Notes under the pieces: model-generated
What the model saw: the letters and a program-made list of their open reading frames with translations, nothing else
Told to the model about the DNA's origin: nothing
Database searches by the model: none
Made by a program: the position numbers and the translations under genes
IMG/VR virus record: IMGVR_UViG_3300009790_000004
Coordinates: 45,783 to 109,782 of that record
From: a virus
Direction: 5' to 3' (one strand)
Length of the DNA stretch: 64,000 bases
Shown here: positions 4,723 through 36,400 of the stretch, one piece after another
Position numbering within the stretch: position 1 is the stretch's first letter
How the letters are laid out: each line of letters starts with the position of its first letter

Positions 4723-7700
4723 ATGCCACTTAATAAGTTAGAGAATTTTATCAAGAATACTGAGGGTAAGATTCTCTATGTAAATCCAAATGATTTGGAT
4801 GCAACAGACAGTATTACTAATCAGGGTAATTCCCTGACGAAACCCTTTAGGACTATTCAGAGAGCACTACTAGAGTCTGCTCGGTTCTCCTATCAGACTG
4901 GATTCGATAACGATATAAACGATAAGACTACTATACTATTATTTCCTGGTGATCACTATGTAGATAACAGACCAGGATTTGCTATTAAGAAAGATCCAAG
5001 CGATCCTACAAGGGCAGTTGGCATATCTCCCTTAGGTTCTCAGACACTTGCTACTGCTGAATTTGGATTAGATTTATCTTCAGAATTTGATCTTACTGTA
5101 GAAAATAATATACTTTATAGATTCAACTCAGTACATGGTGGAATTATAGTACCTCGTGGTACTTCTATTGTAGGTCTGGACTTAAGAAAGACTAAGGTAT
5201 ATCCTTTATATGTACCTAACCCTACAGATGAGGATGTTCCTAATACATCTCTGTTTAGAATAACTGGTAACTGCTATTTCTGGCAGTTCTCTATGTTTGA
5301 TGGTAAGGGTGATCGTTTAGTATATACTGATCATCAACAATTTAATGATGATAACAGATCATTCCCAATATTCTCTCACCACAAATTAACATGCTTTGAG
5401 TATGCTGATGGTATTAATGATGTTAAGGGATATGAGGCTACTGACCTTAGCATGTATTACTATAAGCTAAGTTATGCTTATCAGGAACCAACAGGTCGTG
5501 CTGTTACATATGAATGGCCAGACAATGAAGGAGATTTTGATACAGTTCGTCCAGAGTATGAGATTGTTGGTGCTTTAGGAAGTGATCCTTTAGAAATTGC
5601 AAGTATTATCTCTGGTGATGGTAACACTGCTACATCTCAAGTTACTGTAACTACTCAGCAACCACATAAGTTGAGTGAAGGTACTCCAATTAAGATTAGT
5701 GGAGTTAATGTATCACAATATAATATTTCTACTATTGTACAGTCTATTGTAAATGCTACTACATTTACATACACACTATCAACATTCCCTAATAATTTAC
5801 CAGCTACACCATCTAATATTGCCAATGCAGTAGCAACAATTGAATCTGATACTGTTACTGGTGCATCTCCTTATATCTTTAACTGTTCATTGAGATCAGT
5901 ATATGGTATGCAGGGTATGATTTGTGACGGTTCAGTAGCTACTGGTTTCCGTTCAATGGTTGTTGCCCAGTTTACTGGTATCTCACTACAGAAAGATGAC
6001 AGGGCATTTGTTAAGTATAATCCAGAATCGAGATTGTATGAAGGAATTACATATCAAAAAGTTACTGGTGCAGATTTAAGTGCTCAGTCTTCTTCTACTA
6101 ATGCTGCAACTGTTTATCACTTAGATTCTGGTGCAGTTTATAGACAAGGGTGGGAACAAACTCATGTTACTATCAGAGATAATGCTGTTGTACAGATAGT
6201 TTCTGTGTTCGCTATTGGTTATAATGCTCATTTCTTAGGTTTAAGTGGTGCTGACGCATCTATTACTAACTCTAACTCCAACTTCGGACAATTTGCTTTA
6301 GTTGGTGATGGATTTAGACCTGATGCATTCCCAAGAGATGACCAAGGATATATTACACATATTACTACTCCTCAATCTGTAGATACATCTGCTGCAAAAA
6401 TTGATAGTGTCAGTTTCTATCAGTTAGATGTTGATAAGACTAAACAAGTAGGATTATCAAGTCACTTATACATCTTCTCCTTTGATAAGGAAGATGATCC
6501 CCCTCTAAGTTTATCTCAGGGATTCAGAGTTGGTGCTAGGCACGATGAAAAATTATATGTTTCTATTGGAACAACAGATTATACTGCTAATGTCTTAATG
6601 CTTGAGAACAAGCTAGAGACTTCTGGTATTAATACTGCTGCTCTTGGTAGCCAAAATGCTGTTAAGAAGAGTAAGGCAACAACACCTAATACATTATTCC
6701 AGATGACCGTTGATACTATCGGTCTAGTTACTGGTGAAAAGATAAGAATCTTTAGTGATGATGGTGACTTACCTGAGAACATTGAATTTAATAAGATATA
6801 CTATGCTATTGTAGTATCTGCTACTAATATTAAGATTGCGTCAACATTCTCCAACGCTATTAATGATGTTCCTATTGAAATATATGGTGGTACTAAACTT
6901 AGAGTTGAAAGTAGAGTATCTGATAAGGAAAGTAATGATATTGGACATCCTATTCAGTGGGATGCTACGCAAAGTAGGTGGTTTATTCATGTTGACACAA
7001 ACAATGGAGTATATCCACAGATACAATCTAATGCTAATTTGATTGGTGTTACTGGTACAAACATAGCACAAATCAAGAGGTATGAAGATAAGAGATCTAT
7101 TGAGGATAAACTCTATAAGATCCGTTATGTTATTCCTAAGGAAGCAACTAACTCAAGAGATCCTGTTGATGGATTCATATTACAGAGTTCTTCATTAGCA
7201 GGATATGCTAAGACTTCTGATCCTTCTGCTACAACTATTACTGTTGGTGATAATAACTTCTCTAGAAATCCTGGATTTATTGCATTTGTTAGTGAGTCCT
7301 CTAGTGTAGTAACTGTTAGAACTGAGCAGAAGCATAATGTAGAAGTTGGTGACATTGTTAGGGTACAGGATGTTAAGGATTCTAATAATACTTCTGGTGC
7401 TGATGGTGTAGGATACAATGGATTCTTTGAGGTAACTGCTCTTATTGATGCTTATCAATTTGCACATGGAACCACTGATATTAATGGCGTTGAAAGAAAC
7501 ACTGGTACATTTGTAGATACTACTAATAGTAGAAATCTATTCCAACCAAGATTCTCTATCAATGACAATAAGAAGAACTTTAATGTTTATCGTGTTAATG
7601 TAGTAGAACCTTATGTTTCTGGTGCAAATGATGGTGTCTATGTCTTAGATTTATTGAGTTGTGATTATGCACCACCTCAAGAGTTTACTAGTAAGAAGTA

Positions 7701-9969
7701 TAAGCAGAATGTTACTTATCTGTATCCACAACAGGATAGAGATAATATTGTAGAGAATTCTCCTGCTGCTGTATCATTTGCTCGTAGAGAACCATTAGGA
7801 AAAGTTGATCTTAATGCTTTAAGTAATTCTCTAACCAGAGAAACACTTGATAAGTTTAATAAGACATTTAATATTGGTTATGGTATTTCAGCAGTCAGTG
7901 AAGTATCTGCTGGTGTATGTACGATTACATTTGATAATCAGCATGACTTTAATGGACTTGCTACTCATGAGAATCTAGTAACTAGTGTTGGATATGCTGT
8001 AACTACAGAGTATAATACTAGGTTACTTAATGGTGGTAATTGGGATGGTGCAACTGCAACTGTAACAGTTGGTGTTGGATCTACTACTATCACTGGATTT
8101 GAAGTATTCTCACCTGGATCTGGATTCCAAGGTGGTGAGACATTAACTCTTGAAGGATTCTCTGGAGCAAGTATTGGAGTTCCTACATCTGGTATTTCTA
8201 ATGCTGTTGGTGATGTTGTTGCTATTACTGGAATTGGAACTACATCTGATGGATTGTTTAGAATAACATCTGTACCTAATAAGAATAGTATTGCTATTGC
8301 TGTAACTGCTGGTGATCCTATTGCTATTGAAGGACAATATCTATTCAGAAGTGGTCCTTCTGTTTCTATTGCTTCTACTCATTTTGATATTACAACTGGT
8401 ATAACAACTATTACTACATCTACTCCTCATGGTTTGAGGAAGGGATCTAAGTTTAGGGTTGTTGATACTAATAGTAATAAGATAGGTGAATATCTAGTAT
8501 CAACTATTGCAGGAATTAATACATTCACTACTACAACTGTTAGTGATATTAATTATGCTGCTGGTCACAAACTATATCAACAGACATATGCTGCACACAA
8601 TCAATCAGTAGAAATTAGTGAAGCTATTGGTTCAAGATACCAAAACTTATATGCAGGTGAGACCGCAACACTTAAAGAAGCAGTTACTAACCTTTCTACT
8701 ACAATTAGGGTTCAAGTTCCTAATTCTGGTATTGGTACTGATCTAAGATTTAAATTAGGTGAGTACATTGAAATAGACAAGGAGATTGTAAGGGTTTCAG
8801 AGCAAGGACTCGTAGGTGCTGGTAACGACTCTCTTAATGTTATTAGAGGTGTTCTTGGTACATTACCTGCTCCTCATGTTAGTGGTGCATTAATTAGAAA
8901 AGTAAATGCTCTCGCTGTTGAGATGCGTAGACCATCTATTCTTCGTGCATCTGGTCACACATTTGAATATCTTGGTTATGGTCCAGGTAACTATTCAACT
9001 GGTTTACCTCAGGTACAAAACAGAACTCTATCAGATGATGAAGAGTATCTAGCACAGGCACAAGAAAGATCTGCTGGTGTTGTTGTTTATACTGGTTTGA
9101 ATAACGAGGGTGATTTCTACATTGGTAATAAGAGGATCTCTTCTTCCAGTGGTAAAGAAACATCATTTGGTATTCCTATTCCTAGTGTTACTGGTGAGGC
9201 AGTATCTACCAACTCTGTAGTATTTGATGAAGTTATTGTTCGTCAAAGAATCATTGTTGAAGGTGGTCCTCAGCAAAATATATTATCTCAGTTTGATGGT
9301 CCTGTAGCATTCTCTAATGATGTTAGTTTCACTGATGATATGGTCACAAGTGGTACTGTAGAATTAGGTGGAACTATTGATATTACTGGTACATTCCCTA
9401 GCGGTGCTAAGTTGAACTGTGTTATTGTTGGTGTTGGTACTAATAAATCTGAAATTACTACTGATCCTGCATGTTCATCTGATCTTGTACTTAATGCTGC
9501 TCCTGGTTTCTCTGTTGCTATTGCAACTGATACAAGATATACTGCTGATGTAGTATTTGATAATCAGGTTACATTTAATGGATTTACATCATTCACTCAG
9601 AATGTTTACTCAACTGCTGGATTCGTCACATTCTGTGGTGGTCCTCTACATTGCTGTGATGATATTGTCGCATTCTATGGTCAATCATCTGATGCTACAT
9701 TAAAAGATAATATTGCTACATTAGATAATCCACTTGAAAAAGTAATGCAGATTCGTGGTACTGAGTTTGATTGGAAGGATGGTAATCCTAACTATCAAGG
9801 ACATGACATTGGAGTTATCGCTCAAGATGTCGAATCAGTGTTACCTGATGCAGTATCTACAAAACCAGACGGAACTAAAGGCGTTCATTACAACAAATTA
9901 ATTCCTCTACTTATTGAAGCAGTCAAGGATCTTTCCAAACAGGTGGATGATCTGAGCTCAGATAAATAA
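4723..9969 (+). CDS. Large virion/tail-fibre protein with C-terminal intramolecular chaperone (peptidase S74-type) domain
   Basis: Cyanophage fibre N-terminus (MPLNKLENFIKN..ILYVNPNDLDATD, beta-helix-like VPRGTSIVG). C-terminal SSDATLKDNI...GVIAQDVE..LPDAV...VHYNKLIPLLIEAVK is the S74 signature. Confidence 0.85.
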   Translation: MPLNKLENFIKNTEGKILYVNPNDLDATDSITNQGNSLTKPFRTIQRALLESARFSYQTGFDNDINDKTTILLFPGDHYVDNRPGFAIKKDPSDPTRAVGISPLGSQTLATAEFGLDLSSEFDLTVENNILYRFNSVHGGIIVPRGTSIVGLDLRKTKVYPLYVPNPTDEDVPNTSLFRITGNCYFWQFSMFDGKGDRLVYTDHQQFNDDNRSFPIFSHHKLTCFEYADGINDVKGYEATDLSMYYYKLSYAYQEPTGRAVTYEWPDNEGDFDTVRPEYEIVGALGSDPLEIASIISGDGNTATSQVTVTTQQPHKLSEGTPIKISGVNVSQYNISTIVQSIVNATTFTYTLSTFPNNLPATPSNIANAVATIESDTVTGASPYIFNCSLRSVYGMQGMICDGSVATGFRSMVVAQFTGISLQKDDRAFVKYNPESRLYEGITYQKVTGADLSAQSSSTNAATVYHLDSGAVYRQGWEQTHVTIRDNAVVQIVSVFAIGYNAHFLGLSGADASITNSNSNFGQFALVGDGFRPDAFPRDDQGYITHITTPQSVDTSAAKIDSVSFYQLDVDKTKQVGLSSHLYIFSFDKEDDPPLSLSQGFRVGARHDEKLYVSIGTTDYTANVLMLENKLETSGINTAALGSQNAVKKSKATTPNTLFQMTVDTIGLVTGEKIRIFSDDGDLPENIEFNKIYYAIVVSATNIKIASTFSNAINDVPIEIYGGTKLRVESRVSDKESNDIGHPIQWDATQSRWFIHVDTNNGVYPQIQSNANLIGVTGTNIAQIKRYEDKRSIEDKLYKIRYVIPKEATNSRDPVDGFILQSSSLAGYAKTSDPSATTITVGDNNFSRNPGFIAFVSESSSVVTVRTEQKHNVEVGDIVRVQDVKDSNNTSGADGVGYNGFFEVTALIDAYQFAHGTTDINGVERNTGTFVDTTNSRNLFQPRFSINDNKKNFNVYRVNVVEPYVSGANDGVYVLDLLSCDYAPPQEFTSKKYKQNVTYLYPQQDRDNIVENSPAAVSFARREPLGKVDLNALSNSLTRETLDKFNKTFNIGYGISAVSEVSAGVCTITFDNQHDFNGLATHENLVTSVGYAVTTEYNTRLLNGGNWDGATATVTVGVGSTTITGFEVFSPGSGFQGGETLTLEGFSGASIGVPTSGISNAVGDVVAITGIGTTSDGLFRITSVPNKNSIAIAVTAGDPIAIEGQYLFRSGPSVSIASTHFDITTGITTITTSTPHGLRKGSKFRVVDTNSNKIGEYLVSTIAGINTFTTTTVSDINYAAGHKLYQQTYAAHNQSVEISEAIGSRYQNLYAGETATLKEAVTNLSTTIRVQVPNSGIGTDLRFKLGEYIEIDKEIVRVSEQGLVGAGNDSLNVIRGVLGTLPAPHVSGALIRKVNALAVEMRRPSILRASGHTFEYLGYGPGNYSTGLPQVQNRTLSDDEEYLAQAQERSAGVVVYTGLNNEGDFYIGNKRISSSSGKETSFGIPIPSVTGEAVSTNSVVFDEVIVRQRIIVEGGPQQNILSQFDGPVAFSNDVSFTDDMVTSGTVELGGTIDITGTFPSGAKLNCVIVGVGTNKSEITTDPACSSDLVLNAAPGFSVAIATDTRYTADVVFDNQVTFNGFTSFTQNVYSTAGFVTFCGGPLHCCDDIVAFYGQSSDATLKDNIATLDNPLEKVMQIRGTEFDWKDGNPNYQGHDIGVIAQDVESVLPDAVSTKPDGTKGVHYNKLIPLLIEAVKDLSKQVDDLSSDK
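9961..9968 (+). promoter_or_regulatory. Late promoter GATAAATA
   Basis: Late consensus match just upstream of ATG 9996. Confidence 0.65.
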
Positions 9970-9995: not shown

Positions 9996-12797
9996 ATGCC
10001 TACCAATTATAAGACTATCATTAACTTTAGAGATGGTATCCAGGTCGATGCCAATGATCTGATCTCTAACAATGGACTGGTAGGTATCGGGACCACCATT
10101 CCAAGACAAGAACTTGATGTCCGAGGATCAATGATCGTTGAAGATCAAACTGATCTCAGACATTTGAATGTTGTTGGACAATCTACATTTTATGGTAATG
10201 TTAATCTTGGTGTTGGATACTCGGTAGGTATAGGAACTACAATTCCTGAAGCAACATTCCAAGTTGGTGTAGGAACTACAGGATTTACGGTTGATTCTAA
10301 TGGTAATGTAACTGCTGTATTATTCACTGGTTCTGGTGCTAATTTAACTGATCTTCCTACTGCTGTATGGAGTAATCCTGATCCTGGTGTTGGTAGTACG
10401 ATTAATGCTTTCAGACCTGTTGGAATTTACACTACATTACCTCAAGCAGACTTTACTGTTGGTGATGTAATTGCATTTGATGCTATTAGTGGTGTAGGTA
10501 CATTTGAACAAGTATCTGCTAAGAAATTGAACCTGACTGGTAATGCCATGCAGGGTAATATTGATATGGTTGGATCTATTGTAGGTCTTCAATCAATTAC
10601 TAATGCTAGTGGTATATGTCAATTTGCTGGTGTTGGTTCGTTTAATGGATTAAATGTTGCATCTGGTGTTATAACTGCAACTGCTGATCGTATGGTAATT
10701 AAAGGAGATAGTAAGACTATTGACTTTAATCAAGATTTTGTAAATGCTGATAAGAGAGTTGGTGTAAGATTTATTGAGACTTCTACTGGTTCAGGTATTG
10801 ATGATAAGGTTGTTAGTCAGATATTATATAATGGTGGAGTAACTGGTACTGGTGGTACTGAGAGTGGACAGATAGAAATATGGGGTGATAATGGTACTGA
10901 TAATGTTCCCAGAGTAATAATAACAAGGGAAGCAAATGTAGGTATTGGTACATCAAGATCAAGAGGATTTAATTTAGATGTAGTTGGAACTGGTACAGTC
11001 ACAGGTACTCTTGGTGCTGCTGGTGGATTCCTTGGTAATCTAGTTGGTGATATTGATGGAGTTGCTACAGTAGCAGCAGGATTAACGAACAGTCCAGATA
11101 TTACGATAGATGAGTTAAATTCTCTTGGTATTAATAGTATATTCATTAGAAATACTGGTGTATCTACATTTGGTGGAGAACTTAAGGTAGGTAATTTCCT
11201 TGGTGTTGGTGATACTACATCTACTCTTAATAAGGGTATGGGTGTTATTGGTGGTGCTGATTTCTCAGGTGGTGGTTCATTTGGTGGTGACTTAACAGTT
11301 CAAGGAGATTTATCTATTGGTGGTACATTTGGTGGATCTGTAAGTATTCAGGATGTTACTGCTGGTGAGATTATTGCTACAGGTATTATTTCAGGTACTA
11401 CATCATCTAGTGCTGTACTACATGATACAACAATAACAGGTAATGTAACTCAGGTAGCAGGTAAGAATTTCGCAGTTGGTCAGAATCTTGCCATTGGTGG
11501 AACAACTACATTTGGACCTCAAATAAACTTTGGTGATGCAACTACTGTAGTATCTGCTGCTGGAACACTTAATGCTAATTTGAGTGGTATTATTACAACG
11601 ACTAAGATTGATGTTGGTGATATTACTATTACTGGTGACTTATCATATACTGGTGGAAGTATAGCAACATTTGGACAGATATTATTAGATGGTCCTGCTG
11701 GATTTGTATCTTGCAAATCTCTTGACGCATCTACAGGTATTATTAGTTGTACAGGATTAGACGCTAGAACTGGTCAGATTACTGGTGGTGGAATGAACCT
11801 AACAGGTCCAACCACATCAAATAACTACTTTAGATCAACTGCTGGTGTATCATCATTCTTTGATGTTGATATAACTGGAGGTACTAATAGTAATCTTAGG
11901 TTAACAAGACTAGGATTCAATACTGCTTTATCTGATCTAGGTATTACTGAAGGTATTGCTCTCTGGGATAATGCTGAGATATTTGTTAAGGATTCTCCTG
12001 CTGGTGGTATTGGAATTGGAACTACAGCAGGTAAGAGATCTACTAATGTTGGATTATATGTTGGATATGGAAGAGATGCTTCAGGTAACTTTATCAATGG
12101 AGAAGCAGTATTTGAAGGTGGTGTAGGTATTGGTACTAAGGTTGGATGTGATAATGGCAACCAATTAGAAATATACAAAGAGACTACATTCCATTCATGG
12201 CATACAGGTCTAGGTGGTACTGATGCTGGTCCTGCTCGTATTGGAATTGAGACTAACAGACCACGCACAACTCTTGACTTAGGATTTGTTACTAGTGGAT
12301 TCTTGAGACTACCATCATATTACAATGGTGATCCTGGATCTACAATGCCAAGTACCACACTTGAAGATCGTGGTTGTATATTCTATGATACAAATAGCAA
12401 TACACTTCAGGTTCGTGAGAATAATGGTAATTGGGTTGGACTTGCAACTGTATTATCATTCATTAATGATCCAGGAATATATGTTGAGGAACTTGGATTC
12501 TTGGGTGGTGTGCTAACTGACTCTACACGATCTAATGCTGAAGCAAATGTACATAATATTATTCAACCTTGGGATGAAGTAGGTAACCAGTCAATTGGTT
12601 GGGGTACTGCTCATATGTGGTACAACAAAGATTATAATAAGCACCAGTATAAGACTAATCAAGGAAGTAATAACTCCTACTATAGATCATATGTTTCTAC
12701 AGGAACATCTGCTATAGATATTGAACTAGATAGTGGTGGAACTAAAGTTTATATTACTGTTCCTGGAATCGGTTCATGTACATTTACTCTCGTTTGA
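9996..12797 (+). CDS. Tail-fibre-like structural protein
   Basis: Repeated VGIGTTxP motifs and Gly/Thr-rich beta repeats typical of phage fibres. Confidence 0.8.
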   Translation: MPTNYKTIINFRDGIQVDANDLISNNGLVGIGTTIPRQELDVRGSMIVEDQTDLRHLNVVGQSTFYGNVNLGVGYSVGIGTTIPEATFQVGVGTTGFTVDSNGNVTAVLFTGSGANLTDLPTAVWSNPDPGVGSTINAFRPVGIYTTLPQADFTVGDVIAFDAISGVGTFEQVSAKKLNLTGNAMQGNIDMVGSIVGLQSITNASGICQFAGVGSFNGLNVASGVITATADRMVIKGDSKTIDFNQDFVNADKRVGVRFIETSTGSGIDDKVVSQILYNGGVTGTGGTESGQIEIWGDNGTDNVPRVIITREANVGIGTSRSRGFNLDVVGTGTVTGTLGAAGGFLGNLVGDIDGVATVAAGLTNSPDITIDELNSLGINSIFIRNTGVSTFGGELKVGNFLGVGDTTSTLNKGMGVIGGADFSGGGSFGGDLTVQGDLSIGGTFGGSVSIQDVTAGEIIATGIISGTTSSSAVLHDTTITGNVTQVAGKNFAVGQNLAIGGTTTFGPQINFGDATTVVSAAGTLNANLSGIITTTKIDVGDITITGDLSYTGGSIATFGQILLDGPAGFVSCKSLDASTGIISCTGLDARTGQITGGGMNLTGPTTSNNYFRSTAGVSSFFDVDITGGTNSNLRLTRLGFNTALSDLGITEGIALWDNAEIFVKDSPAGGIGIGTTAGKRSTNVGLYVGYGRDASGNFINGEAVFEGGVGIGTKVGCDNGNQLEIYKETTFHSWHTGLGGTDAGPARIGIETNRPRTTLDLGFVTSGFLRLPSYYNGDPGSTMPSTTLEDRGCIFYDTNSNTLQVRENNGNWVGLATVLSFINDPGIYVEELGFLGGVLTDSTRSNAEANVHNIIQPWDEVGNQSIGWGTAHMWYNKDYNKHQYKTNQGSNNSYYRSYVSTGTSAIDIELDSGGTKVYITVPGIGSCTFTLV

Positions 12798-12803
12798 TAG
12801 ACA

Positions 12804-14510
12804 ATGGCAGCAAATAATTGGAGCAAGACAACTCAACAGTTATTAACTGGTACACCAGGCACACAGATTTCATTTGGTGAGATTCGTGCTGCTATAGGTG
12901 ATACTAGCAAACCTCTGTCTGCTTCTGAATTACATAGACAGACGGATCTTGATGCACCATATGATTTTAGTCAAGGTAAATACCCATCATCAACACCAAC
13001 TCCACATTTACCTTATGTTTTAGATTCTACTGAAAATGCTAATGTTCCTACTAGTGGTGCAATAACACCACAAGATGTTAGAGGGGTTATTAAAGAATAT
13101 GTTATTGAACAGGATGCGATGTCAGAGGAGGAGAATTTTAATGTTACTTCTCTTAGTAGTCCTACAACTCCTAGCGTTAATGCTAATTGGAACTCAAATT
13201 TAAATAAGAATATAACAAAGTATCTTAAGATCAAGGGTAGACTTGTTAGTAATTCAATATCAACTCCTGCTGGTACTGCTGATGCACCATCGTCTAACTT
13301 AAATGTATATGTAAAAAATGCTCCTGCATCTTATGGTGTATATGGTGCTGGTGGTGCTATCAATCAACCAGGCGGACATGCTCTTTCTATTAGTCAACCA
13401 GCAGGTCCAGCAATTAGGAAAGTATTTGTAGAGTGTGAAGGGTCAGATGCTAGGATATATGGCGGTGGAGGAGGTGGTAAGCATGGTGTTGATGGATCGG
13501 ATGGTTCGCCTGGTAGTGGAGCAACATCGGGGTCTCCTGGGTCTCCTGGCGGTGGTGGATCAAACGGTAGTCCTGGATCCAATGGATCATCAGGATCTGG
13601 TGGAGGCAATGGTTCGCCTGGATCTCCTGGATCATGGGGATCTCCTGGTATGCAGAGGAGTACATTCCAGCAAAGACAGACTGTACAGAACAGAACAACT
13701 AATCAGAGTAGACGAACTCGTCGTAAGAGATATGGTGGTTGGCCCCGTAGTCGTCGTGGAGGTAAGCAAGAGAGACTATCAACACAAGCAACAAGTAGTG
13801 GACAATCAAGAACAACATCACAATATAAAGTAGCATGTTTCGGTGGATCTGGTGGTTCAGGTGGTAGCGGTGGATCAGGAGGATCTGGCGGTGGCGGTGG
13901 ATCAGGAGGATCTGGTGGATCAGGTGGTGGAGGAGGTTCAGGAGGATCTGGTGGTCCTGGTGGATACTCTGGAACTGGTGGAGTAAAAGGATATGCTGGT
14001 GTTGCTGCTCCTGGTCGTGGTTGGAATTATAAAACTGGTAACATAGCAGGAACATCTGGAACTCCAGGAACCCCAGGCACTCCTGGCGGTGGTGGTGGAC
14101 CTGGCACACCTGGAACTCCTGGAGGTGGAGGACAACCTGGAACTCCAGGCACTCCTGGAGGTGGAGGAGGATCTGGTGGTTCTGGAACTCCTGGAACTCC
14201 TGGCGGTTCAGCGAGTTGTGGTGCAGCATCGCCTGGAACTCCTGGCACACCTGGAACTCCTGGAGGTGGTGGATCAAGTGGATCTGATGGGCAACCTGGG
14301 CAACCTGGCGGTGGTGGATCTCCTGGAACACCTGGAACTCCAGGTAATGCAGGAACTCCTGGGCAACCTGGCGGACCTGGGCAACCTGGCGGACCTGGCG
14401 GTGACTGGGGTGAAGCAGGTGGTAACAGTGGTGGTGCTGCTGGTCGTGCAGTTAGTGGTAGTAAATATCAAGTCATACCAAACAACGGAGATATTAAGAT
14501 CATCTACTAA
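12804..14510 (+). CDS. Gly-X-X repeat fibre-tip/adhesin-like protein
   Basis: Four long G-X-X tracts (GSP, GGS, GTP, GQP). Motifs GVYGAGG, RIYGGGGGG and GGAAGRAV recall T-even gp38-type polyglycine adhesins. Central Arg-rich loop. Confidence 0.75.
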   Translation: MAANNWSKTTQQLLTGTPGTQISFGEIRAAIGDTSKPLSASELHRQTDLDAPYDFSQGKYPSSTPTPHLPYVLDSTENANVPTSGAITPQDVRGVIKEYVIEQDAMSEEENFNVTSLSSPTTPSVNANWNSNLNKNITKYLKIKGRLVSNSISTPAGTADAPSSNLNVYVKNAPASYGVYGAGGAINQPGGHALSISQPAGPAIRKVFVECEGSDARIYGGGGGGKHGVDGSDGSPGSGATSGSPGSPGGGGSNGSPGSNGSSGSGGGNGSPGSPGSWGSPGMQRSTFQQRQTVQNRTTNQSRRTRRKRYGGWPRSRRGGKQERLSTQATSSGQSRTTSQYKVACFGGSGGSGGSGGSGGSGGGGGSGGSGGSGGGGGSGGSGGPGGYSGTGGVKGYAGVAAPGRGWNYKTGNIAGTSGTPGTPGTPGGGGGPGTPGTPGGGGQPGTPGTPGGGGGSGGSGTPGTPGGSASCGAASPGTPGTPGTPGGGGSSGSDGQPGQPGGGGSPGTPGTPGNAGTPGQPGGPGQPGGPGGDWGEAGGNSGGAAGRAVSGSKYQVIPNNGDIKIIY

Positions 14511-14518
14511 ATTTCGTT

Positions 14519-15118
14519 ATGTCAATTTATTCTTTGAGTCCTTCTCCTAATTTTCATGGAGAGACAACATATCAGACATGGGAAGATGGATTCACCTCAG
14601 ATGAATGTGATCGTATCATTAAATATGGTGAATCTCTTAATCCAAGACCTGCTACTGTTGGTAATGATAGTGATACCAATGTAGTTGATAATATTCGTAC
14701 ATCTAAAACTTCTTGGATAGACTGTAATAATGACACAAAATGGTTGTATGAGCGTCTAGGTAATATACTAAGAGTAGTTAATGGTATGTTCTGGAAGTTT
14801 GATATCCGTGGATTTCATGAACATATACAATATACTGTGTATGAAGGAGATTCTAAAGGATTTTATAGGTGGCATGTAGATAATAATATGCAGTCTGATG
14901 TACCACCAAGAAAGTTGAGTATGACTGTACAATTATCTGATCCTAGTGACTATACTGGTGGAGAATTGCAATTACATAGTGGTGAAGTACAAACAGCAGT
15001 AAATAATAGAGGACATATTATATTATTTCCTAGCTATGTTCTACATAGGGTACAACCTGTCACTTCTGGTATACGCAGAAGTTTGGTAGTCTGGGCAAAT
15101 GGTCCTGGATTCAAGTGA
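14519..15118 (+). CDS. 2OG-Fe(II) hydroxylase (PKHD/prolyl-4-hydroxylase-like)
   Basis: WHVD, RKLSMTVQLSDPSDYTGGEL and FPSYVLHRVQPVTSGIRRSLV motifs. Confidence 0.9.
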   Translation: MSIYSLSPSPNFHGETTYQTWEDGFTSDECDRIIKYGESLNPRPATVGNDSDTNVVDNIRTSKTSWIDCNNDTKWLYERLGNILRVVNGMFWKFDIRGFHEHIQYTVYEGDSKGFYRWHVDNNMQSDVPPRKLSMTVQLSDPSDYTGGELQLHSGEVQTAVNNRGHIILFPSYVLHRVQPVTSGIRRSLVVWANGPGFK

Positions 15119-15120
15119 CA

Positions 15121-15175
15121 GACAGTGAAATAAGTGTCCATTCCACCCCATTCTGAGGTCAAGATCGTGTATAAT
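15121..15175 (+). promoter_or_regulatory. Early promoter with 18-bp dyad
   Basis: GACAGT-N6-AGTGTC (15121-15138), then TATAAT at 15170-15175; ATG follows at 15182. Confidence 0.75.
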
Positions 15176-15181
15176 AGAAGT

Positions 15182-16345
15182 ATGAAGAACACACATCTTG
15201 AGCATCTTGAAGACGACATCCTCAACAGTGGTGCTGTTGGTGGATTTAATGTAGTTTCGGTACTTCGCTCATTTGGTAACATGTTGACAGGCACTCAGTC
15301 TGAACTAAGTGTTACAACTAAATGGGATGGAGCACCTGCTATAGTATGTGGTACTGATCCTGTAACTGGTAGGTTCTTTGTTGGTACTAAATCTGTATTC
15401 AATAAGGTCACACCTAAAGTATGTTATGATGATGTTGATGTTGATCGTTTCTATCAAGCAGAGATACTTCGTAGGAAATTAAAGGATTGTCTTAAATATC
15501 TCTCACAATTAAACATTAAAGGTATTATTCAGGGAGACTTACTTTTCTCTTCAGGTGATAAGAAATATGCTAAGATTGGTGGACATAGAGTTATTACTTT
15601 CAATCCTAATACTATTACATATGCTGTTTCATGTAAATCTGCTCAAGGAATTGCAGTAGAAAAAGCACAAATTGGTATTGTATTTCATACAGTATATGAG
15701 GGAAATACTATACAATCTTGTAAGGCAGTATATAAAGCACCTCTATTTGTAGGAACTGAAGATATATTCATTCCTAACGCTAATTATAATGATGCTAAGG
15801 GTATTAGTCGCTTCAATAATACTGAGAGAATGAAGTATGTTGCTACTATTAATCGTGCTGAAGGATCACTTAAGAGAGCATCAAAGTTTCTTGATATTAT
15901 GCACCGTCAAGGACAATCTAGGTTCTTAATGCCATTATTATTCAAGCAATTCTTTAACACAACAATTCGTAATGGTAAGAGTATTCTTAACACTAGGAGA
16001 ACAGTTGCACAATTTGCTAAATTCTATTCTGATAAGTTAGATGCAGAAATTAATAAGAAAACAAGTGTTAAAGGTAAAGAAAGATATGAACAAATGAAAG
16101 CAGAAGGACTCAACTTTATTATTAAGTATGAGAATGAGATATACTTTACTTTCGCATCATATATTTCTATTCGTGATGCTAAGAGAATGGTAATTAAACA
16201 GTTAAATAAGGTTGGTCAAATCAGAACATATATAGGTTGCACACCAACAACTCCTGAAGGATATGTTGTTTCAACTAACAACTATGCAATGAAGTTTGTT
16301 GATGATGAATTTAGAAAAGCGAACATTCTCTTTGGCATACAATGA
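15182..16345 (+). CDS. Conserved T4-like phage protein with ligase-type nucleotidyltransferase motifs (DUF6267-like)
   Basis: MKNTHLEHLED start; TTKWDGAP (KxDG), IQGDLLF, EGYVV and MKFV resemble motifs I, III, IV and V of ATP-dependent ligases. Confidence 0.7.
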   Translation: MKNTHLEHLEDDILNSGAVGGFNVVSVLRSFGNMLTGTQSELSVTTKWDGAPAIVCGTDPVTGRFFVGTKSVFNKVTPKVCYDDVDVDRFYQAEILRRKLKDCLKYLSQLNIKGIIQGDLLFSSGDKKYAKIGGHRVITFNPNTITYAVSCKSAQGIAVEKAQIGIVFHTVYEGNTIQSCKAVYKAPLFVGTEDIFIPNANYNDAKGISRFNNTERMKYVATINRAEGSLKRASKFLDIMHRQGQSRFLMPLLFKQFFNTTIRNGKSILNTRRTVAQFAKFYSDKLDAEINKKTSVKGKERYEQMKAEGLNFIIKYENEIYFTFASYISIRDAKRMVIKQLNKVGQIRTYIGCTPTTPEGYVVSTNNYAMKFVDDEFRKANILFGIQ

Positions 16346-17649
16346 AAAAGATTGCTGTAATTGGTGCTGGTGTTATTGGTATTAATTCTGTCTTACAATT
16401 GATAGAAGAAAGAACTAAATCAGATGCAGAGAATGAATGTAAAATAGTATGGATATATGATACTTCAATAGATATATTTGGTATCGGAGAATCAACAACT
16501 CCATCATTATCAGGACAAATTGCAAGTCCACCTTCATACTTAAGATATGATTCTAAAGATTACTTTGATGCTACGATTAAGTTTGGAAATAGATTTATAG
16601 GATGGGGTAAAAATGGTGGAGATTTTACTAGATATTTTCCAATGTCTCGTGCTGCTATACATTTTGATACGAGATTGTTCAGTAGTTTCTTCATTGAGCA
16701 TTTAAATAGTGAGACTTGTTATAACTTTGAAGCAAGAGATACTAAGATAAAATCAATAATATTTGATGAAGATCCTATTGGTGGACATTGTTTTGGTGTT
16801 CATATTGATGGAGAATCTTATGATTTTGTATTAGATTGTAGTGGTGGTAAATCATTAGTTAATGATGATTATTATTTTGATTCACCATTTGATACATGTA
16901 ATACTGTCCTTGCTACTAGACTACCAGAACCAGCAGATTGGGGTTATACATTAACACAAACCACTCGAAATGGTTGGATGTTTGGTATTCCATTACAGTC
17001 AAGAAGAACCTACGGTTATGCTTACAATTCAAGTGTTACTTCAGAAGAAGAAGCACAACAAGAGTTTAGAAGTTTAGTTCCACAAGAAGGATATCAGTAT
17101 AAGAAATTAACATGGAAACCACGATTCTCTAACTATGTTTTACACCATAGTGGTAGATATGCTCGTAATGGTAATGCACTAGGATTTCTTGATCCATTAG
17201 AAGCATTAGCGGGAATGTATTATGATAAGGTAACAGATAAGACTGCAAAATATGCTCTTGGCGATACATACAATAGTATAGATCTCATCAATAGTATTAA
17301 CAATTGGTATTATCAGGAGATTGTTGGTGATTGGTTATTAAATTCTGCATGGATGTATCATTTTGGATCTGAACATGACACACCATTTTGGCAACAAGTC
17401 TCAAAAAATGCTAAAGATATATTAAACAATAAGGAGATAAATCCTTGTCGATTAATAAGTGATGAACAGACATTTACAGATGATTTGTTTAATATTATTG
17501 GTGACAATCCTGAAATGAAAAAGTTATTTGTACATGATCTTCTTGATGTTGAGTTTACTTTCGATTTCTGTCGAGATTATTATAATTTTATATCATTTAC
17601 TACTGGTATGGGTGCTGAGTATGCTAACAAATTTCCAACATTTACCTAA
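16342..17649 (+). CDS. Flavin-dependent (tryptophan) halogenase family protein
   Basis: GAGVIG FAD motif, GIGESTTP, DATIKFG (catalytic Lys position), GWMFGIPL (WxWxIP variant), GNALGFLDPLEA. Confidence 0.85.
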   Translation: MKKIAVIGAGVIGINSVLQLIEERTKSDAENECKIVWIYDTSIDIFGIGESTTPSLSGQIASPPSYLRYDSKDYFDATIKFGNRFIGWGKNGGDFTRYFPMSRAAIHFDTRLFSSFFIEHLNSETCYNFEARDTKIKSIIFDEDPIGGHCFGVHIDGESYDFVLDCSGGKSLVNDDYYFDSPFDTCNTVLATRLPEPADWGYTLTQTTRNGWMFGIPLQSRRTYGYAYNSSVTSEEEAQQEFRSLVPQEGYQYKKLTWKPRFSNYVLHHSGRYARNGNALGFLDPLEALAGMYYDKVTDKTAKYALGDTYNSIDLINSINNWYYQEIVGDWLLNSAWMYHFGSEHDTPFWQQVSKNAKDILNNKEINPCRLISDEQTFTDDLFNIIGDNPEMKKLFVHDLLDVEFTFDFCRDYYNFISFTTGMGAEYANKFPTFT

Positions 17650-17672: not shown

Positions 17673-19058
17673 ATGACTAGAAAGATTGCTATTATTGGTG
17701 GTGGTGCTGATGCAATATCAGCAGTAATAAATTGTGTATCTAATAGAGATACAATTGATAGTGTATATCAAGATGATGAAATAGTTTGGATCAGAGATTG
17801 TAGTCATGTTATTGATAACAATTGCATACAAGTTGAGTCTGAATGGACAGAAATAGTAGGAGAAAATACAACATTAAATACTATTCATTTCTCACAATTA
17901 CTAGATGGTAAACAGAAATGGGGTAAGAAGTTTATTGGATTTGGTAATAATACTCCTCACAATTTCATGGTAATGTATGAACCAACACATGTAGGTTGGC
18001 ATTTAGATGAGAAGAAACTTGTTGAATTGTTCTGGAATAATTATACTAACACTGCAAGAAATGTTAGACTAATTGATGCTAATGTACCTAATATTGATGT
18101 CACTGATGATTATGTTAAAGTCCTTGATGAACAATATGATTTTGTAATTGACTGCACTAGAGGTTCAATTTGGGATCATAATTCTTATAGTCAAGCATTA
18201 TATAATCCAACAAATGCAACACTAAGTATTACTGTAGAGAAAGAAGCAGAGTTTAATTATACTGCTCATATTGCTGCAAAGAATGGTTATATAACTGGTA
18301 TTCCTACTAAAGATAGACAAACATGGATATATTCATACGATAAAGATATAACAACTAAGGAAGATGCTACACATGATTTTAATCAATATTGTGAGGTTAG
18401 TAACTATGGGTTGCTAAAATTCAATGAATATGATAAACTGTTATCAGATTATTGTATTCACTCTAACAACAGATATGCTAGATGTGGTCGTGCTTTAGGA
18501 TTTAATGATGAATTAAACAACTTTAAGAATTATCTTGAAGGTGATATTGCGGAAGCAATAGCAATATATTTATTTGAAGATCCAGAGAGACAACAAACAG
18601 AATATCAGAGATTAGATGTTGAAGAAAGATATGATGATGGCAAAACAGATTATGCTTCATCACTTGGATTTTATCTACAGTTCGGTTCACAACACAAGAC
18701 AAAATTCTGGGAACAAACTAGAATAAATGCTTGTCATACTTTGGAGAACAGAAAATACTTTGATATATCTGAGAATCTTATACAACATGATTATCTTAAA
18801 ATGAATGAACTTATTCCATTACATGAGAATATTCGTTTAGATTATTTTAGGAGATTAGCAGAAGATGAACAGCGTATGAGGCAAAAGATGACTGCAAACT
18901 CTGATGAACCTTACAGATTGTTAGGTAGTTATCAGATATTTACAGAGACTATTAATGGATTAGGTGCTCCATATGCACATAAATTTCCATTAATGACTGA
19001 ACTTATCCCACCAAAAGAACCATTTGGAGAGATTAATTTAGACCCTATTATATTATGA
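17673..19058 (+). CDS. Divergent halogenase-family paralogue
   Basis: Colinear with the upstream gene but with degenerate motifs: GGGADA, DGKQKWG, GYITGIPT, GRALGFNDEL. Confidence 0.75.
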   Translation: MTRKIAIIGGGADAISAVINCVSNRDTIDSVYQDDEIVWIRDCSHVIDNNCIQVESEWTEIVGENTTLNTIHFSQLLDGKQKWGKKFIGFGNNTPHNFMVMYEPTHVGWHLDEKKLVELFWNNYTNTARNVRLIDANVPNIDVTDDYVKVLDEQYDFVIDCTRGSIWDHNSYSQALYNPTNATLSITVEKEAEFNYTAHIAAKNGYITGIPTKDRQTWIYSYDKDITTKEDATHDFNQYCEVSNYGLLKFNEYDKLLSDYCIHSNNRYARCGRALGFNDELNNFKNYLEGDIAEAIAIYLFEDPERQQTEYQRLDVEERYDDGKTDYASSLGFYLQFGSQHKTKFWEQTRINACHTLENRKYFDISENLIQHDYLKMNELIPLHENIRLDYFRRLAEDEQRMRQKMTANSDEPYRLLGSYQIFTETINGLGAPYAHKFPLMTELIPPKEPFGEINLDPIIL

Positions 19059-31540: not shown

Positions 31541-33460
31541 ATGCCATTCACCAAATTTACTAATTTAAATTTTAATGAAATCAAGGAATCTGTTAAAGAT
31601 TACCTAAGAGCTAACTCTGATTTCAAAGATTATGACTTTGAAGGGTCGAATATGTCGATTATTGTCGATATATTAGCGTATAATTCGTATATAACGGCGT
31701 TTAATACCAATATGGTTGCTAATGAGTCCTTTCTGGATTCAGCGACACTCCGAGAGAATGTAGTTTCTTTAGCAAGGAATATAGGATATGTACCCAGATC
31801 ACGAAAATGTGCTCAAGCAGTAGTTAATTTTGATTATAAATTCACTGGAAATAGTAATACGGTCACTTTAAAGCAAGGTTTAGCGTTAGTTGGTGCTGTA
31901 AATAATACAAGTTATGTTTTTTCTGTCCCAGAAGATGTAACTGTTAATAGTCCTTTAGATGCTGGAGGCATAAGTGGAAATAATTCACCTAGAACAGCAT
32001 CATTTTCTGGTTTAAATGTCTATCAAGGTACACTTTTAACTAAAAAGTTTACTGTAAATGGTAGTTCTGACCAAAGATTCGTTCTTGAGAACTCATTTGT
32101 CGATTTAGACACTCTCAGAGTTACTGTTAAGAAGTCTGGATCCTCTGCAGGACTAGCATTTTCAAGAATTGATAATATTATTGATGTAACTTCTGTATCA
32201 AATGTGTATTTGGTACAAGAAGTCAAGAATGAGACCTATGAATTGCTCTTTGGAGATGGTCTTTTTGGTAAAAAACTCGAACTTGGCGATGAAATTAGTA
32301 TATCTTACATAGTAACAGATGGAAAAGAGGGAAATGAAGGAAAATTCTTCAGTTTTTCGGGAAATATTGTAGATGATGCTGGAAATTCTCTTTCATCGAC
32401 CAGTCTTGTTCAAATAACTGCTACTCAAACCGCTAGGAATGGGTCGGATATTGAACAAATTGACTCTATTCGGTATTTTGCCCCTAGAATGTACTCCGCA
32501 CAGAACAGGGCGGTTACACCTAGGGATTATGAGGCTATTATACAGTCTGTTTATCCAAATACGGAGTCCGTTTCCGTAGTTGGTGGTGAGGAATTGGATC
32601 CACCTGAATTTGGAACGGTTGTTTTAAGCATAAAACCTAAAAATGGTACATTTCTATCTGACTTTACCAAGCAGAACATCCTAAATGATCTTAAACAGTA
32701 TGCAATTGCAGGTATTAACCAAAGAATTGAAGATTTAAAGATTCTATATGTAGAATTAGACAGTTATGTCTATTACAATAACAGTATTATTGATGATAAA
32801 GACCAACTTAAGGCAGAAGTTACTACTTCTCTTACAGAGTATGGAAAATCTGCTAATTTGAATGCATTTGGGGGTAGATTTAAGTATTCTGAGAGTCAAA
32901 GAATCGTTGATGAGACAGATCCTGCAATTACTTCCAATATTACACGAGTTACTATTCGCAGAGACCTAAAAGCACTCTTAAATCAGTCGGCTCAGTATGA
33001 ATTATGCTTTGGTAACCAATTTAACATCAAAACTGGTGGTGGAACCATTAAATCTACTGGATTTAGCATTACAGATATTGATGGTGAGGTATATTTAACA
33101 GATATACCGAGAGGGGATGGTCGATATGGTGATATTGCCATATTTAAACCTGCTGCTTCTGCTGAAGATGATGCAGTTGTTGTTGTTAAGTCTGCAGGTA
33201 CTGTAGATTATACAAAAGGTGAAGTTTTGCTCAATACTGTTAATATATCATCAACAGTTAAGACAAATGATGTAGTTGAAATACAAGCATACCCCGAATC
33301 TAATGATATTATCGGATTAAAGGACATTTACCTAAGTTTAGACATGTCAAATACTACGATAAATATCGTCAGAGACACTATATCTTCTGGTCAGCAAATC
33401 TCTGGCATAGGATATAAAGTCACCTCTAGTTACTCTAACGGATCGCTAATTAGACAGTAG
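31541..33460 (+). CDS. gp6: Baseplate wedge subunit gp6
   Basis: DYDFEGS, FLDSATLRENVVSLARNIGY, YELLFGDG and QNRAVTPRDY motifs. Confidence 0.93.
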   Translation: MPFTKFTNLNFNEIKESVKDYLRANSDFKDYDFEGSNMSIIVDILAYNSYITAFNTNMVANESFLDSATLRENVVSLARNIGYVPRSRKCAQAVVNFDYKFTGNSNTVTLKQGLALVGAVNNTSYVFSVPEDVTVNSPLDAGGISGNNSPRTASFSGLNVYQGTLLTKKFTVNGSSDQRFVLENSFVDLDTLRVTVKKSGSSAGLAFSRIDNIIDVTSVSNVYLVQEVKNETYELLFGDGLFGKKLELGDEISISYIVTDGKEGNEGKFFSFSGNIVDDAGNSLSSTSLVQITATQTARNGSDIEQIDSIRYFAPRMYSAQNRAVTPRDYEAIIQSVYPNTESVSVVGGEELDPPEFGTVVLSIKPKNGTFLSDFTKQNILNDLKQYAIAGINQRIEDLKILYVELDSYVYYNNSIIDDKDQLKAEVTTSLTEYGKSANLNAFGGRFKYSESQRIVDETDPAITSNITRVTIRRDLKALLNQSAQYELCFGNQFNIKTGGGTIKSTGFSITDIDGEVYLTDIPRGDGRYGDIAIFKPAASAEDDAVVVVKSAGTVDYTKGEVLLNTVNISSTVKTNDVVEIQAYPESNDIIGLKDIYLSLDMSNTTINIVRDTISSGQQISGIGYKVTSSYSNGSLIRQ

Positions 33461-33461
33461 A

Positions 33462-36400
33462 ATGATCGAAACATATTCTCCCTTAAGTCCTAGGGTAAAA
33501 ACTTATCAGGTCGTTAGCGAACTAATACCTGAATTTGCCAAATCAGAGAATCCTCTGTTTTCCAAATTCTTAGAGCAGTATTATATTTCTCAAGACTTCC
33601 AAGGTGGACCTGCAGATATTGCGGAGAATATTGATGCGTATATTAAGGTAGATAATTTAACTACTGATGTAATAAGAGGTACAACTACTCTTGTTGGTAC
33701 TATTTCATCAACAGATACTACTATAACTGTTGATAGTACTGATGGATATCCACAAAAACACGGTCTTTTTAAGATTGATGATGAAATTTGCGGATATACT
33801 GGTTTAACCACTAATAGTTTTACTGGTGTTTGGCGTGGTTTTAGTGGAATTTCCACATTTACCAAACAAAATGATCCTTCTGCCCTAGTATGGGAACAAA
33901 CTGTTGCAGGAGTTCATACAACTGGTGCAAATGTAGTTAATTTAAGTTCTTTATTCTTAAAAGAATTTTATAAGAACTTGAAAGCGATGTATACTCCAGG
34001 ATTAGAAGGAGTAACGCTTTCACCCCAATTAGATGTTAATAATTTCATAAAAGAAGCAAGAAGTCTATATGAAGCAAAAGGAACTCGTGCATCCTTTAAG
34101 ATTCTCTTTAAAGCACTGTTTGGAGTTGACCCAAAGATCAACGATCTTGAGAAATACCTAATTAAACCATCTTTTGCCAATTATTTGCGTAGAAGAACGG
34201 TTTCTGTGCAATTAATATCGGGTGATCCCTCGAAATTAGTTGGTCAGACACTTTTTCAGGATAACGATCCAACAAACCCTCAATTTAACGAAGCTTCTGG
34301 TCCTATTTCTGAAGTATCCAATATTAGAGAAGATTATTATAAACTTTCGCTATTTACAGGATTTGAAGAACGAGGTTTGACTGATGGTACTTTCATAGTA
34401 CCTGGACGAAGTAATAATGTTGGAAAAATTGGAATTGGTGCGTCTGTTATCACTGTAGACTCTACAATTGGTTTTTCTAGCATTGGTAATATTAAAGTTG
34501 GTGAAATTGGAACATCATTTTACCAAACATTCACTTATGGATCCAAAAGTATCAATCAATTCTTTGATGTTACTCCTTCAGTAAGTATTGAAATTCCAAG
34601 TAACAGTACAGTATCTACTTTTAATGTTGTTCATGGTTTTGAGGACGGAGATTCTAGCAAAAAGGTAGAAATGCGTCTAACTGGCGTACTTTCTGATTTT
34701 ATCACTAGTAGATCTCTCCGTAACCTTAAATCTACTTCAGATATTAAGGTTAAGAACTTAGGAAGGTATATTTCCAACCCTAACATCAATAAGACTTATG
34801 ATGAGGTCTTTTTCAATAGTTGGATCTACAATACATCCTCTAGATATCAAATATCAAATTGGGGTGGATCTAATTTCACTCTTGTTGGTAATATTGAGAA
34901 AAGTAGTCTTAAAACTGGTGATAGAATTGAAATTTTGCGTAGAAATAGTGAAGTTGTTGTTGCACCTTCGCTAATTGTTGCATCAATCAACGCAAGTGCT
35001 AAATCTATTAGTTTAGATGGTACTATTCCTACTCTTGATATAAGTTTAGATTATGATATCCGAAGACTGCAAGATAAAGTAAAATCATCAATTGTACCAG
35101 TTAAAGGTGGACAAGATCAGTTATTAACTGATATTAATAACGCATATATTGTTGATGAGTCTAAATCTGAATCAGGAAAGAGGGAAGCGTATGTTGCTTC
35201 TAGTTCTCTTCCCAGTTATACTATTAAAGCAGATAGAATACATGCAGTTTTAAATAATCCTTCTCTTGGTGGGGGAAACTGGGATGGATATAATAGCGTA
35301 GAGAACAAATATAGTATTATTTCTTTTGCAACTGATGTTCCATTTGAAACTGGAGATGAAGTAATATATGCTCCAGATCCAGGAACTGAGGTTATTGGTG
35401 GATTATCTTCACCAAGTTATTTTGTAGAAGTTCTAGGTAGTCCTAATCAGATTAAATTATACGCATCTCGCTCATTTATTAAAGCAAATCTACCAACTTA
35501 CTTCACTGCTCCATCTACAACTGTAGGTAGACACGATTTTATTCTTGCAACTCAAGGAACTAGAAATATCTTCCCTGCAAGACCAATAAAGAGGTTTATT
35601 CTAGAGCAACAACTTAAGAGTGGTAAAGAAGGTCAAACTACCTCTGAAGTTACCGTAGATGGCAATACTGCAATGCTTATTAATGGTATTGAGGTATTAA
35701 ACTATAAAGGTGCTGATCAGATATTCTATGGACCTGTAGATAACTTAAATGTTATCAATAGTGGTATATTATATGATGTTCAAGCAGCTCCAAACATTAC
35801 TATTACTGATGCTGCGGTAAGTGTTGCAAATACTGCTGGAGCAGTTCCAGTTTTAAGTGGAATTGTATCGAGTATTGTTATCGATCCATCTGATTATGAC
35901 CTTGATAAAGTCATTAGTGTTGAGATATATGGTGGTAATGGAAGTGGTGCTGTAGGTAGAGCACTAATTGAAGAACGATTTAGACAAGTATATTTTAATG
36001 GTATTAGTACTAATCTCGGTGGAGATGTTAGTGCAACTTACAATACATTCAATTTAGATAAAGATCATAATTTCTTAACTGGAGATAGGATAGTATACAA
36101 TAATAATGGTGGATCTAATATTGGTATTGCTACAACTGGATCTTCTTCTGATTCATTAACATTATTCAGTGGTCAGGATTATTATATAAATGTTTGGAAT
36201 TCTAAGGTCTTTTCTCTTCATAATAGGAAGAGTGATGCAGTTATTGGTATTAATACAATATTAATTGATGAAAATGCTGCTCAATCTAATGCAGGTCTTC
36301 ATATTTTCCGTACTTTTGATAAAAACCGCACAATTAGTAGAGTTGCTGTAGAAGAAGTCGGATCAAATTACTCAAATAGAAATTTATTTGTTAAATCTGT

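Follow-up and report, generated by a model that had tools for sequence, protein, structure and literature searches.

What is a 2-oxoglutarate (2OG)/Fe(II)-dependent oxygenase doing directly behind the gene for a tail fiber protein full of Gly-X-Pro triplets? The question is raised by a 64,000-nucleotide stretch of phage DNA (positions 45,783 to 109,782 of IMG/VR record IMGVR_UViG_3300009790_000004), the whole of which is called the window here and is numbered from its first letter. Three genes are at issue:

9996 to 12797, + strand: 933-aa distal tail fiber protein (phrog_3269, “tail protein,” E = 7e-12)
12804 to 14510, + strand: 568-aa adhesin
14519 to 15118, + strand: 199-aa 2OG/Fe(II) oxygenase, prolyl hydroxylase type (PF13640)

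A preliminary description of the locus had proposed that the last two form an enzyme-substrate pair, with a Gly-X-Pro fiber as the substrate. In the explanation that we favor, a gp38-type adhesin would instead cap the distal tail fiber of an uncultured T4-like phage, and two excursions from its beta-helix body would be drawn out into four antiparallel left-handed polyproline-II (PPII)/polyglycine-II (PGII) strands, with a (GGS)n strand inside, three G-X-Y strands with Pro at Y outside, and a 62-residue Arg/Gln-rich loop at the far tip. The oxygenase, as the last gene of the adhesin transcription unit, would most likely hydroxylate the exposed Y-position prolines (X-Pro-Gly), and hydroxylation would either make the PPII strands stiffer or more stable or provide attachment points for additional decoration. 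We give this reading as a whole, a gp38-type four-strand needle adhesin with prolines hydroxylated by the adjoining enzyme, an even chance of being right.

The composition of the 568-aa protein agrees with the abundance of GTP, GSP, GQP, and GGP triplets noted at the outset. It is 27% Gly and contains 53 Pro residues, 36 of which are followed by Gly, with 33 overlapping G-x-P-G sites (16 GTP, 8 GSP, 5 GQP, and 4 GGP). Uninterrupted Gly-X-Y runs of 14, 18, 18, and 19 triplets are present, and within such runs Pro occurs 31 to 32 times at Y and at most once at X. Among 34 unique homologues, Pro is found 1013 times at Y and 21 times at X, and Lys at Y is uncommon (82 of ~2,650 triplets). GGG recurs as every fourth or fifth triplet.

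Comparison of folds points to gp38. An AlphaFold2 (AF2) model made with 25 homologues as input has a mean predicted local distance difference test score (pLDDT) of 61 and is confident at residues 100 to 240, 385 to 430, and 510 to 560. When it was compared with structure representatives by the use of VIA-align, the highest-scoring chains were gp38 of S16 (6f45_D; Z = 15.7; 213 of 248 residues aligned at 25% identity) and gp38 of PP01 (9v85_C; Z = 15.3; root mean square deviation, 3.5), followed by the next chain at Z = 7.7. All three noteworthy Foldseek matches are also gp38 (6f45 and 9v85), and the comparison recovers the three parts of that fold: an attachment domain, a beta-helix, and a glycine-rich distal domain. 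The gene position is likewise that of gp38, directly 3′ of the distal fiber gene (gap of 6 nt) and in the same order in relatives; the 933-aa protein is likely the gp37 counterpart that the adhesin caps. The sole cultured-phage match to the N-terminal 220 residues, S-SRM01 gp053 (36% identity), is annotated as a “gp37-gp38 adhesin tip complex,” and precomputed matches to PF05268 (GP38) exist for 27 of 33 homologues in a large protein collection. A Pfam hmmscan of the 568-aa protein itself returned no family even at E = 10, neither PF05268 nor the collagen family PF01391, and PDB sequence and profile searches, including one with a profile of the N-terminal domain, reached no gp38 chain; fold comparison alone did so.

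In S16, gp38 is a monomer seated on a trimeric fiber, and ten short PGII helices emanate from two turns of its beta-helix, with the receptor-binding loops placed distally (PMC6851490). The window adhesin shares with the gp38 proteins of T-even phages (S16, T2, and PP01; 6f45 and 9v85; PF05268) the overall fold, the position of its gene right after the distal fiber gene, and a predicted path in which glycine-rich strands leave and re-enter the beta-helix body and loops lie distally. Sequence searches with it matched neither PF05268 nor any gp38 PDB chain. The ten short helices of gp38 form a 73-residue sandwich (PMC6851490), whereas the window adhesin has four strands of 54 to 57 residues (~90 in relatives), of which three are G-X-Pro rather than poly-Gly, together with a 62-residue basic tip loop. 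Its parts are as follows:

12804 to 13466, + strand: residues 1 to 221, attachment region and beta-helix body (AF2 pLDDT, 80 to 94 at residues 100 to 240; gp38 fold match)
13467 to 13655, + strand: strand 1, residues 222 to 284, 6 + 14 triplets, chiefly GSP/GSN
13656 to 13841, + strand: Arg/Gln-rich insert (presumed distal tip loop) of ~62 residues (285 to 346); conserved core, RRKRYGGWPRSRRG
13842 to 14006, + strand: strand 2, (GGS)n, residues 347 to 401, 18 triplets with two Gly per triplet
14007 to 14048, + strand: basal turn APGRGWNYKTGNIA, residues 402 to 415, nearly invariant (homologue alignment; AF2 pLDDT, 88 to 94 at residues 390 to 420)
14049 to 14210, + strand: strand 3, residues 416 to 469, 18 triplets, 11 with Pro at Y (GTP/GQP/GGP)
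14211 to 14234, + strand: short distal turn ASCGAASP, residues 470 to 477
14235 to 14405, + strand: strand 4, residues 478 to 534, 19 triplets, 13 with Pro at Y
14406 to 14510, + strand: C-terminal piece W-G..GG.AGRAV.GS.Y.V...GDIK.IY and stop codon, returning to the body (AF2 pLDDT, 83 to 91)

The strands change length in step. Across the 34 unique homologues, which fall into 11 length classes, the four G-X-X segments lengthen and shorten jointly (pairwise r of 0.96 to 0.99), and wherever boundaries can be parsed the per-segment shifts relative to the window are mostly equal in triplets (−3, −2, +1, +7, and +8). Strands count 18 to 19 triplets in the window and 15 to 27 in relatives; the lengths of the N-terminal part, the insert, and the C-terminal piece are independent of them. 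Homologues of seemingly intermediate length (314 to 425 aa) were set aside as fragments, since two have tails resembling sequencing-adapter read-through and two end out of pattern. Joint shifts of this kind require repeated compensating indels in four places and are best explained by side-by-side packing. Taken together with the gp38 fold, the lack of imino acids in the (GGS)n strand 2, which is probably the inner strand, and the confident strand ends (the confident residues 222 to 240, 385 to 430, and 510 to 560 coincide with the points at which the strands meet the body), the co-variation argues for an antiparallel PPII/PGII bundle within one chain and not a parallel collagen trimer. With the PPII rise of ~3.1 Å per residue, the needle would be about 17 nm long here and up to ~28 nm long in the longest relatives. 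Similar bundles are known from the snow-flea antifreeze protein and its like, in which a single chain forms side-by-side left-handed helices with Gly at every third residue pointing inward; those have ~13 residues per strand, and the window strands are 4 to 7 times longer and are carried on a phage adhesin body.

The Arg/Gln-rich insert is kept in all long forms of the adhesin (37 IMG/VR loci; 546 to 658 aa; 25 to 46 GxPG sites) at a length of 62 to 76 residues that does not follow strand length. It is presumed to be the distal tip loop, a counterpart of the hypervariable receptor-binding loops of gp38 that by analogy may bind the receptor, and it is modeled at low confidence as a beta-hairpin. 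The C-terminal piece is common to long forms, short forms (43 loci; 354 to 463 aa; 0 to 4 GxPG sites), and S-SRM01 gp053. The reading of the protein as an adhesin of the gp38 type, lengthened by a needle of four PPII/PGII strands, is well supported and highly probable. A plain collagen-type fiber gives way to it, being disfavored by the gp38 fold and the four co-varying G-X-X strands.

The enzyme is prolyl hydroxylase-like. It matches PF13640 (E = 4e-15; 56.9 bits; cutoff, 27), and the intact HxD..H..R set recognized earlier extends to five residues (H119, D121, H176, R186, and S188; HxD..H..RxS) that do not vary among 20 homologues and paralogues; identity among relatives falls as low as 51%. 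Its AF2 model (pLDDT, 83) has as best Foldseek matches PPHD (4iw3 and 4j25), PHD2, a Dictyostelium PHD, and vCPH of PBCV-1, with E values of 1e-11 to 3e-9, and it also lies near the PKHD-type proteins Sbal_3634 and PiuC. These nearest folds, prolyl hydroxylases, are the reason for the assignment; as modeled, the fold does not tell which prolines the enzyme would act on. The window holds a single copy of the gene. In some relatives with the longest adhesins, a second paralogue directly follows the first (L047:8536-9084, L048:8476-9036, L052:9415-9966, and L061:8520-9068; L numbers denote loci), and a third, more distant PF13640 gene precedes halogenase-like genes (L047:10557-11093).

Enzymes with which it may be compared occur in other systems. 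PBCV-1 vCPH (5c5t; template modeling score of 0.68 to 0.74 with the oxygenase model) and the collagen-modifying enzymes of mimivirus (mimivirus protein L230) are likewise virus-encoded 2OG oxygenases of the same fold, whose presumed substrates are PPII-forming repeat proteins encoded by the same virus. However, they belong to giant viruses of eukaryotes, their substrates are not tail fiber adhesins, and identity is only 18%. The prolyl 4-hydroxylase (P4H) of Bacillus anthracis (5hv0 and 5iav) pairs such an enzyme with BclA, a surface protein with Gly-Pro-Thr-type (GPT) repeats, in the prokaryotic world. It matches the oxygenase weakly in sequence (E = 0.035; N-terminal 65 residues only). In BclA, unlike in the window adhesin, Pro occupies X and the repeats assemble into a trimeric collagen helix, and the BclA gene does not adjoin that of the P4H. 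We know of no oxygenase linked to gp38 in T-even phages.

In the window, the ATG of the oxygenase gene follows the adhesin stop codon after 8 nt (14511 to 14518). In the relatives of the window, the linkage of the two genes is tight. The oxygenase gene lies downstream of the adhesin gene in all 37 long-form loci, at 4 to 10 nt in 36 of them and with a 201-aa ORF between the two in the other, and insertions accumulate elsewhere in the module while this spacing is kept. A homologue of the 933-aa fiber protein is encoded upstream of the adhesin in 37/37 long-form loci. Among the 43 short-form loci, it is the immediate upstream neighbor in 8, and a halogenase-like gene stands between the two in another 4. 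None of the 43 short-form loci was matched by a narrow oxygenase profile; that is, they are without this oxygenase.

Subfamily members elsewhere also keep company with collagen-like genes. In the oxygenase trees, one of them a FastTree tree of 121 rows, the window's own oxygenase clade falls within clade A (SH-aLRT support, 99; FastTree support, 98), which includes oxygenases located 0 to 2 genes downstream of unrelated collagen-like fiber genes (L236, L242, L246, L250, L282, L285, and L292) and also holds L123, P-SSM7_033, S-MbCM100_026, S-RSM4_140, L440, and L496. At L123, the clade A oxygenase is paired with a Pro-at-Y protein, a second and independent case. In a reverse test, 80 loci were fetched by similarity to the sister-subclade oxygenase alone, and an ORF within 5 kb was counted as collagen-like if it had at least 8 uninterrupted GXY triplets. 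Such an ORF was present in 41/80 of these loci (51%) versus 4/120 random loci (3%; Fisher P = 6e-16, a value that ignores relatedness), and a PLOD-like protein was present in 17 of the 80 (L467 to L546).

At three clade A loci (L242, L282, and L285), the gene order is a collagen-like fiber with Lys at Y, the P4H-like oxygenase, and, as the next gene, one for a protein with GT25 and PLOD-GT domains:

L242, 2798 to 4621, − strand: GT25/PLOD-GT protein ending in a 2OG domain
L285, 3 to 1757, − strand: GT25/PLOD-GT protein ending in a 2OG domain
L282, 6227 to 7309, + strand: GT25/PLOD-GT protein, cut by the contig end

By its domains, the GT25/PLOD-GT/2OG architecture is that of collagen lysyl hydroxylase/glycosyltransferases, and loci of this type look like complete collagen hydroxylation and glycosylation cassettes. 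A literature search found such collagen-modification chemistry described for giant viruses only and not for bacteriophages. The window locus resembles these cassettes in its logic, a fiber gene followed by modifying enzymes, and in having a related oxygenase, which in the cassettes stands between the collagen-like fiber gene and the PLOD-like gene. Unlike them, the window locus lacks a PLOD/GT25 gene, and the partner is gp38-like with Pro at Y rather than a long GPx/GxK collagen.

Oxygenases of a separate clade B (L150, L166, L179, L183, and L293; GC content of about 0.5) are embedded among several collagen-like tail fiber genes in which both GxP and GPx triplets occur, including one for a 265-aa protein with 34 GxPG sites; these loci are an independent instance of the fiber/oxygenase theme. 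In S-RSM4, genes 144 and 131 (L003:5162-6214 and 13117-14196), which flank a 2OG oxygenase cluster, encode Gly-rich proteins (26 to 32%) without GXY periodicity that end in G..G.v.i.Y, like the window adhesin.

Several results weigh against the proposal that the enzyme hydroxylates a bundle of adhesin strands. The mid-strand pLDDT is below 50, and we therefore infer the four-strand packing rather than see it directly in the model. The basic residue binding 2OG is Arg186 (H176 +10) in 20/20 sequences, as in PHD, PPHD, and PiuC, whereas Lys binds the C5 carboxylate of 2OG in collagen-type P4Hs and occupies this role in the PBCV-1/mimivirus-type enzymes as well. Since the whole module (fiber, 900-aa protein, adhesin, oxygenase, DUF6267 protein, and halogenase-like genes) is collinear throughout the clade, the adjacency seen there has to be taken as a single evolutionary event. 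A broader profile detects distant 2OG ORFs 300 to 450 nt downstream of 12/43 short-form adhesins, which weakens the seemingly perfect co-occurrence. The broad oxygenase family is present in 8/120 IMG/VR loci picked by a random 14-mer (~7%), mostly low-GC marine phages, and never beside a collagen-like gene. Loci retrieved by codon pattern are not enriched for it (6/106 for (GTP)3 and 9/120 for (GPT)3), so that the family as a whole appears to be common and usually unlinked to Gly-X-Pro genes; a claim that such genes generally attract it was dropped after these counts. The collagen-like partners in the sister clade have Pro at X and not at Y. The complete genomes of P-SSM7, S-MbCM100, and S-RSM4 have no run of at least 8 GXY triplets, nor do the nearest outgroups L440 and L496, and the clade A genes of those three phages lie in clusters near fiber genes without adjoining them.

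The main rival, which we hold to be less likely, is that the oxygenase is functionally unconnected with the adhesin and, like many other 2OG oxygenases of marine phages, acts on a target of the host or elsewhere in the phage (a translation factor, say, in the manner of Pseudomonas PPHD on EF-Tu) or on a small molecule, its position being inherited synteny in a hypervariable fiber region. The top structural hit, 4iw3 (PPHD bound to EF-Tu), fits such a role, as do the presence of the family at random viral loci without collagen-like neighbors, the cultured cyanophages just mentioned, and the collinear module. However, inheritance alone sits poorly with a spacing of 4 to 10 nt held in 36/37 loci despite insertions elsewhere, with the enrichment of collagen-like genes at sister-subclade loci, with clade A oxygenases inside PLOD/GT25 cassettes, and with the strict placement of Pro at Y, the classical P4H site. 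Alternatively, the enzyme might modify the adhesin or fiber at other residues, either on Asn, Asp, Lys, or Arg in the tip loop or somewhere on the beta-helix body. The 2OG ORFs near nearly GxP-free short forms would suit this, and PF13640 includes lysyl hydroxylase domains, but those ORFs fall in other, distant clades in trees, the closest folds are all prolyl hydroxylases, and Lys is rare at Y, which makes the alternative improbable. There is as little probability that the Gly-X-Pro tracts assemble into an ordinary collagen triple helix of three identical parallel chains, like that in collagen-like tail fibers from bacteria and prophages. Gly at every third residue in unbroken runs of 14 to 19 triplets is what such a helix needs, and phmmer aligns strands 3 and 4 to collagen chains and to the collagen-like fibril chain 8zxl. 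The collagen model PF01391, however, reaches only 15.7 bits in one relative (cutoff, 27.2) and is not matched in the window protein; gp38 is a monomer on its trimeric fiber (PMC6851490). Four segments joined by short turns also stay equal through at least 10 length changes, a match that tandem collagen domains would not need, and strand 2 and the frequent GGG triplets are ill suited to a collagen helix.

Hydroxylation of the adhesin prolines by the adjoining oxygenase remains the explanation that we prefer. Given the structure, the enzyme-substrate pairing is plausible, with independent comparative support and chances slightly better than even, and the adhesin prolines are its inferred substrate. 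The pairing put forward in the preliminary description is strengthened by the prolyl hydroxylase-like family, residues, and fold, by the linkage in all long forms, and by the subfamily enrichment; it is held back by the collinear module, by the commonness of the broad family, and by the cyanophages without a collagen-like run.

The end of the transcription unit appears to lie just behind the oxygenase gene, which fits the earlier remark that the next promoter comes only after the enzyme:

15121 to 15138, + strand: dyad GACAGTGAAATAAGTGTC (GACAGT-N6-AAGTGTC, 18 bp), by sequence reading
15170 to 15175, + strand: TATAAT, 31 nt on from the dyad, by sequence reading
15134 to 16345 as listed, start probably at ATG 15182: DUF6267 protein (PF19782; E = 4e-111)

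Directly 3′ of the oxygenase stop codon, the dyad and TATAAT make up a promoter-like element that marks where the fiber-adhesin-oxygenase unit ends and the next one begins. The listed DUF6267 ORF begins at a GTG within this element; its true start is most likely ATG 15182 because homologues begin MKNTHLEHLED. A generic scan for consensus promoters and terminators was uninformative (24 sites versus 29.8 expected; 0 terminators), as was a search for T4 late promoters (TATAAATA). The DUF6267 gene is downstream of the oxygenase gene in 36/37 long-form loci and is found within 2 to 5 kb in 17/43 short-form loci.

Genes for tryptophan halogenase-like flavin adenine dinucleotide (FAD) proteins (PF04820) follow in the window at 16342 to 17649 and 17673 to 19058. 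They accompany gp38-like adhesins in 34 to 35 of the 37 long-form loci, in 10/43 short-form loci, and in S-SRM01, where the halogenase-like gp052 (L025:5355-6812) is encoded between the fiber and adhesin genes. These proteins may have another fiber-modifying or fiber-associated function.

The 109.8-kb IMG/VR record containing the window is 51% complete by estimate. The window carries baseplate genes for gp6 (phrog_219; 31541 to 33460) and gp8 (phrog_438; 49776 to 51347), and its gp6 is 56% identical to that of Synechococcus myoviruses. On the basis of these genes and this identity, the source is assigned to an uncultured marine T4-like, Kyanoviridae-like phage; a megablast search with 9 kb of the window against cultured phages gave no DNA-level match. 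Giant ORFs lie around the baseplate genes (33462 to 49739, 5425 aa; 51352 to 58686, 2444 aa; and 4723 to 9969, 1748 aa). The ORF at 293 to 799 matches phrog_274, “DNA endonuclease V,” and also has weak matches to 2OG oxygenase phrogs, so that its phrog label may mislead.

Both gp38 adhesins and viral prolyl hydroxylases were already known; what is new is the pairing of a gp38-like adhesin with an enzyme of the prolyl type. In the adhesin, the rare polyglycine-II sandwich known from gp38 would be lengthened into a rod, and strands that change length in step are an unusually clean natural experiment on bundle construction, one that may reveal how phages adjust the reach of a receptor-binding tip. 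A single-chain needle tip of 17 to 28 nm hydroxylated by the phage's own enzyme would be the first virion protein of a phage to carry hydroxyproline, a possibility that we advance tentatively. The roles of many 2OG/Fe(II) oxygenases in T4-like cyanophages and other marine phages are open, and this locus, with the clade-wide association, offers a concrete and cheaply testable substrate. If the proposal is true, a large clade of marine phage 2OG oxygenases would gain a function in fiber maturation.

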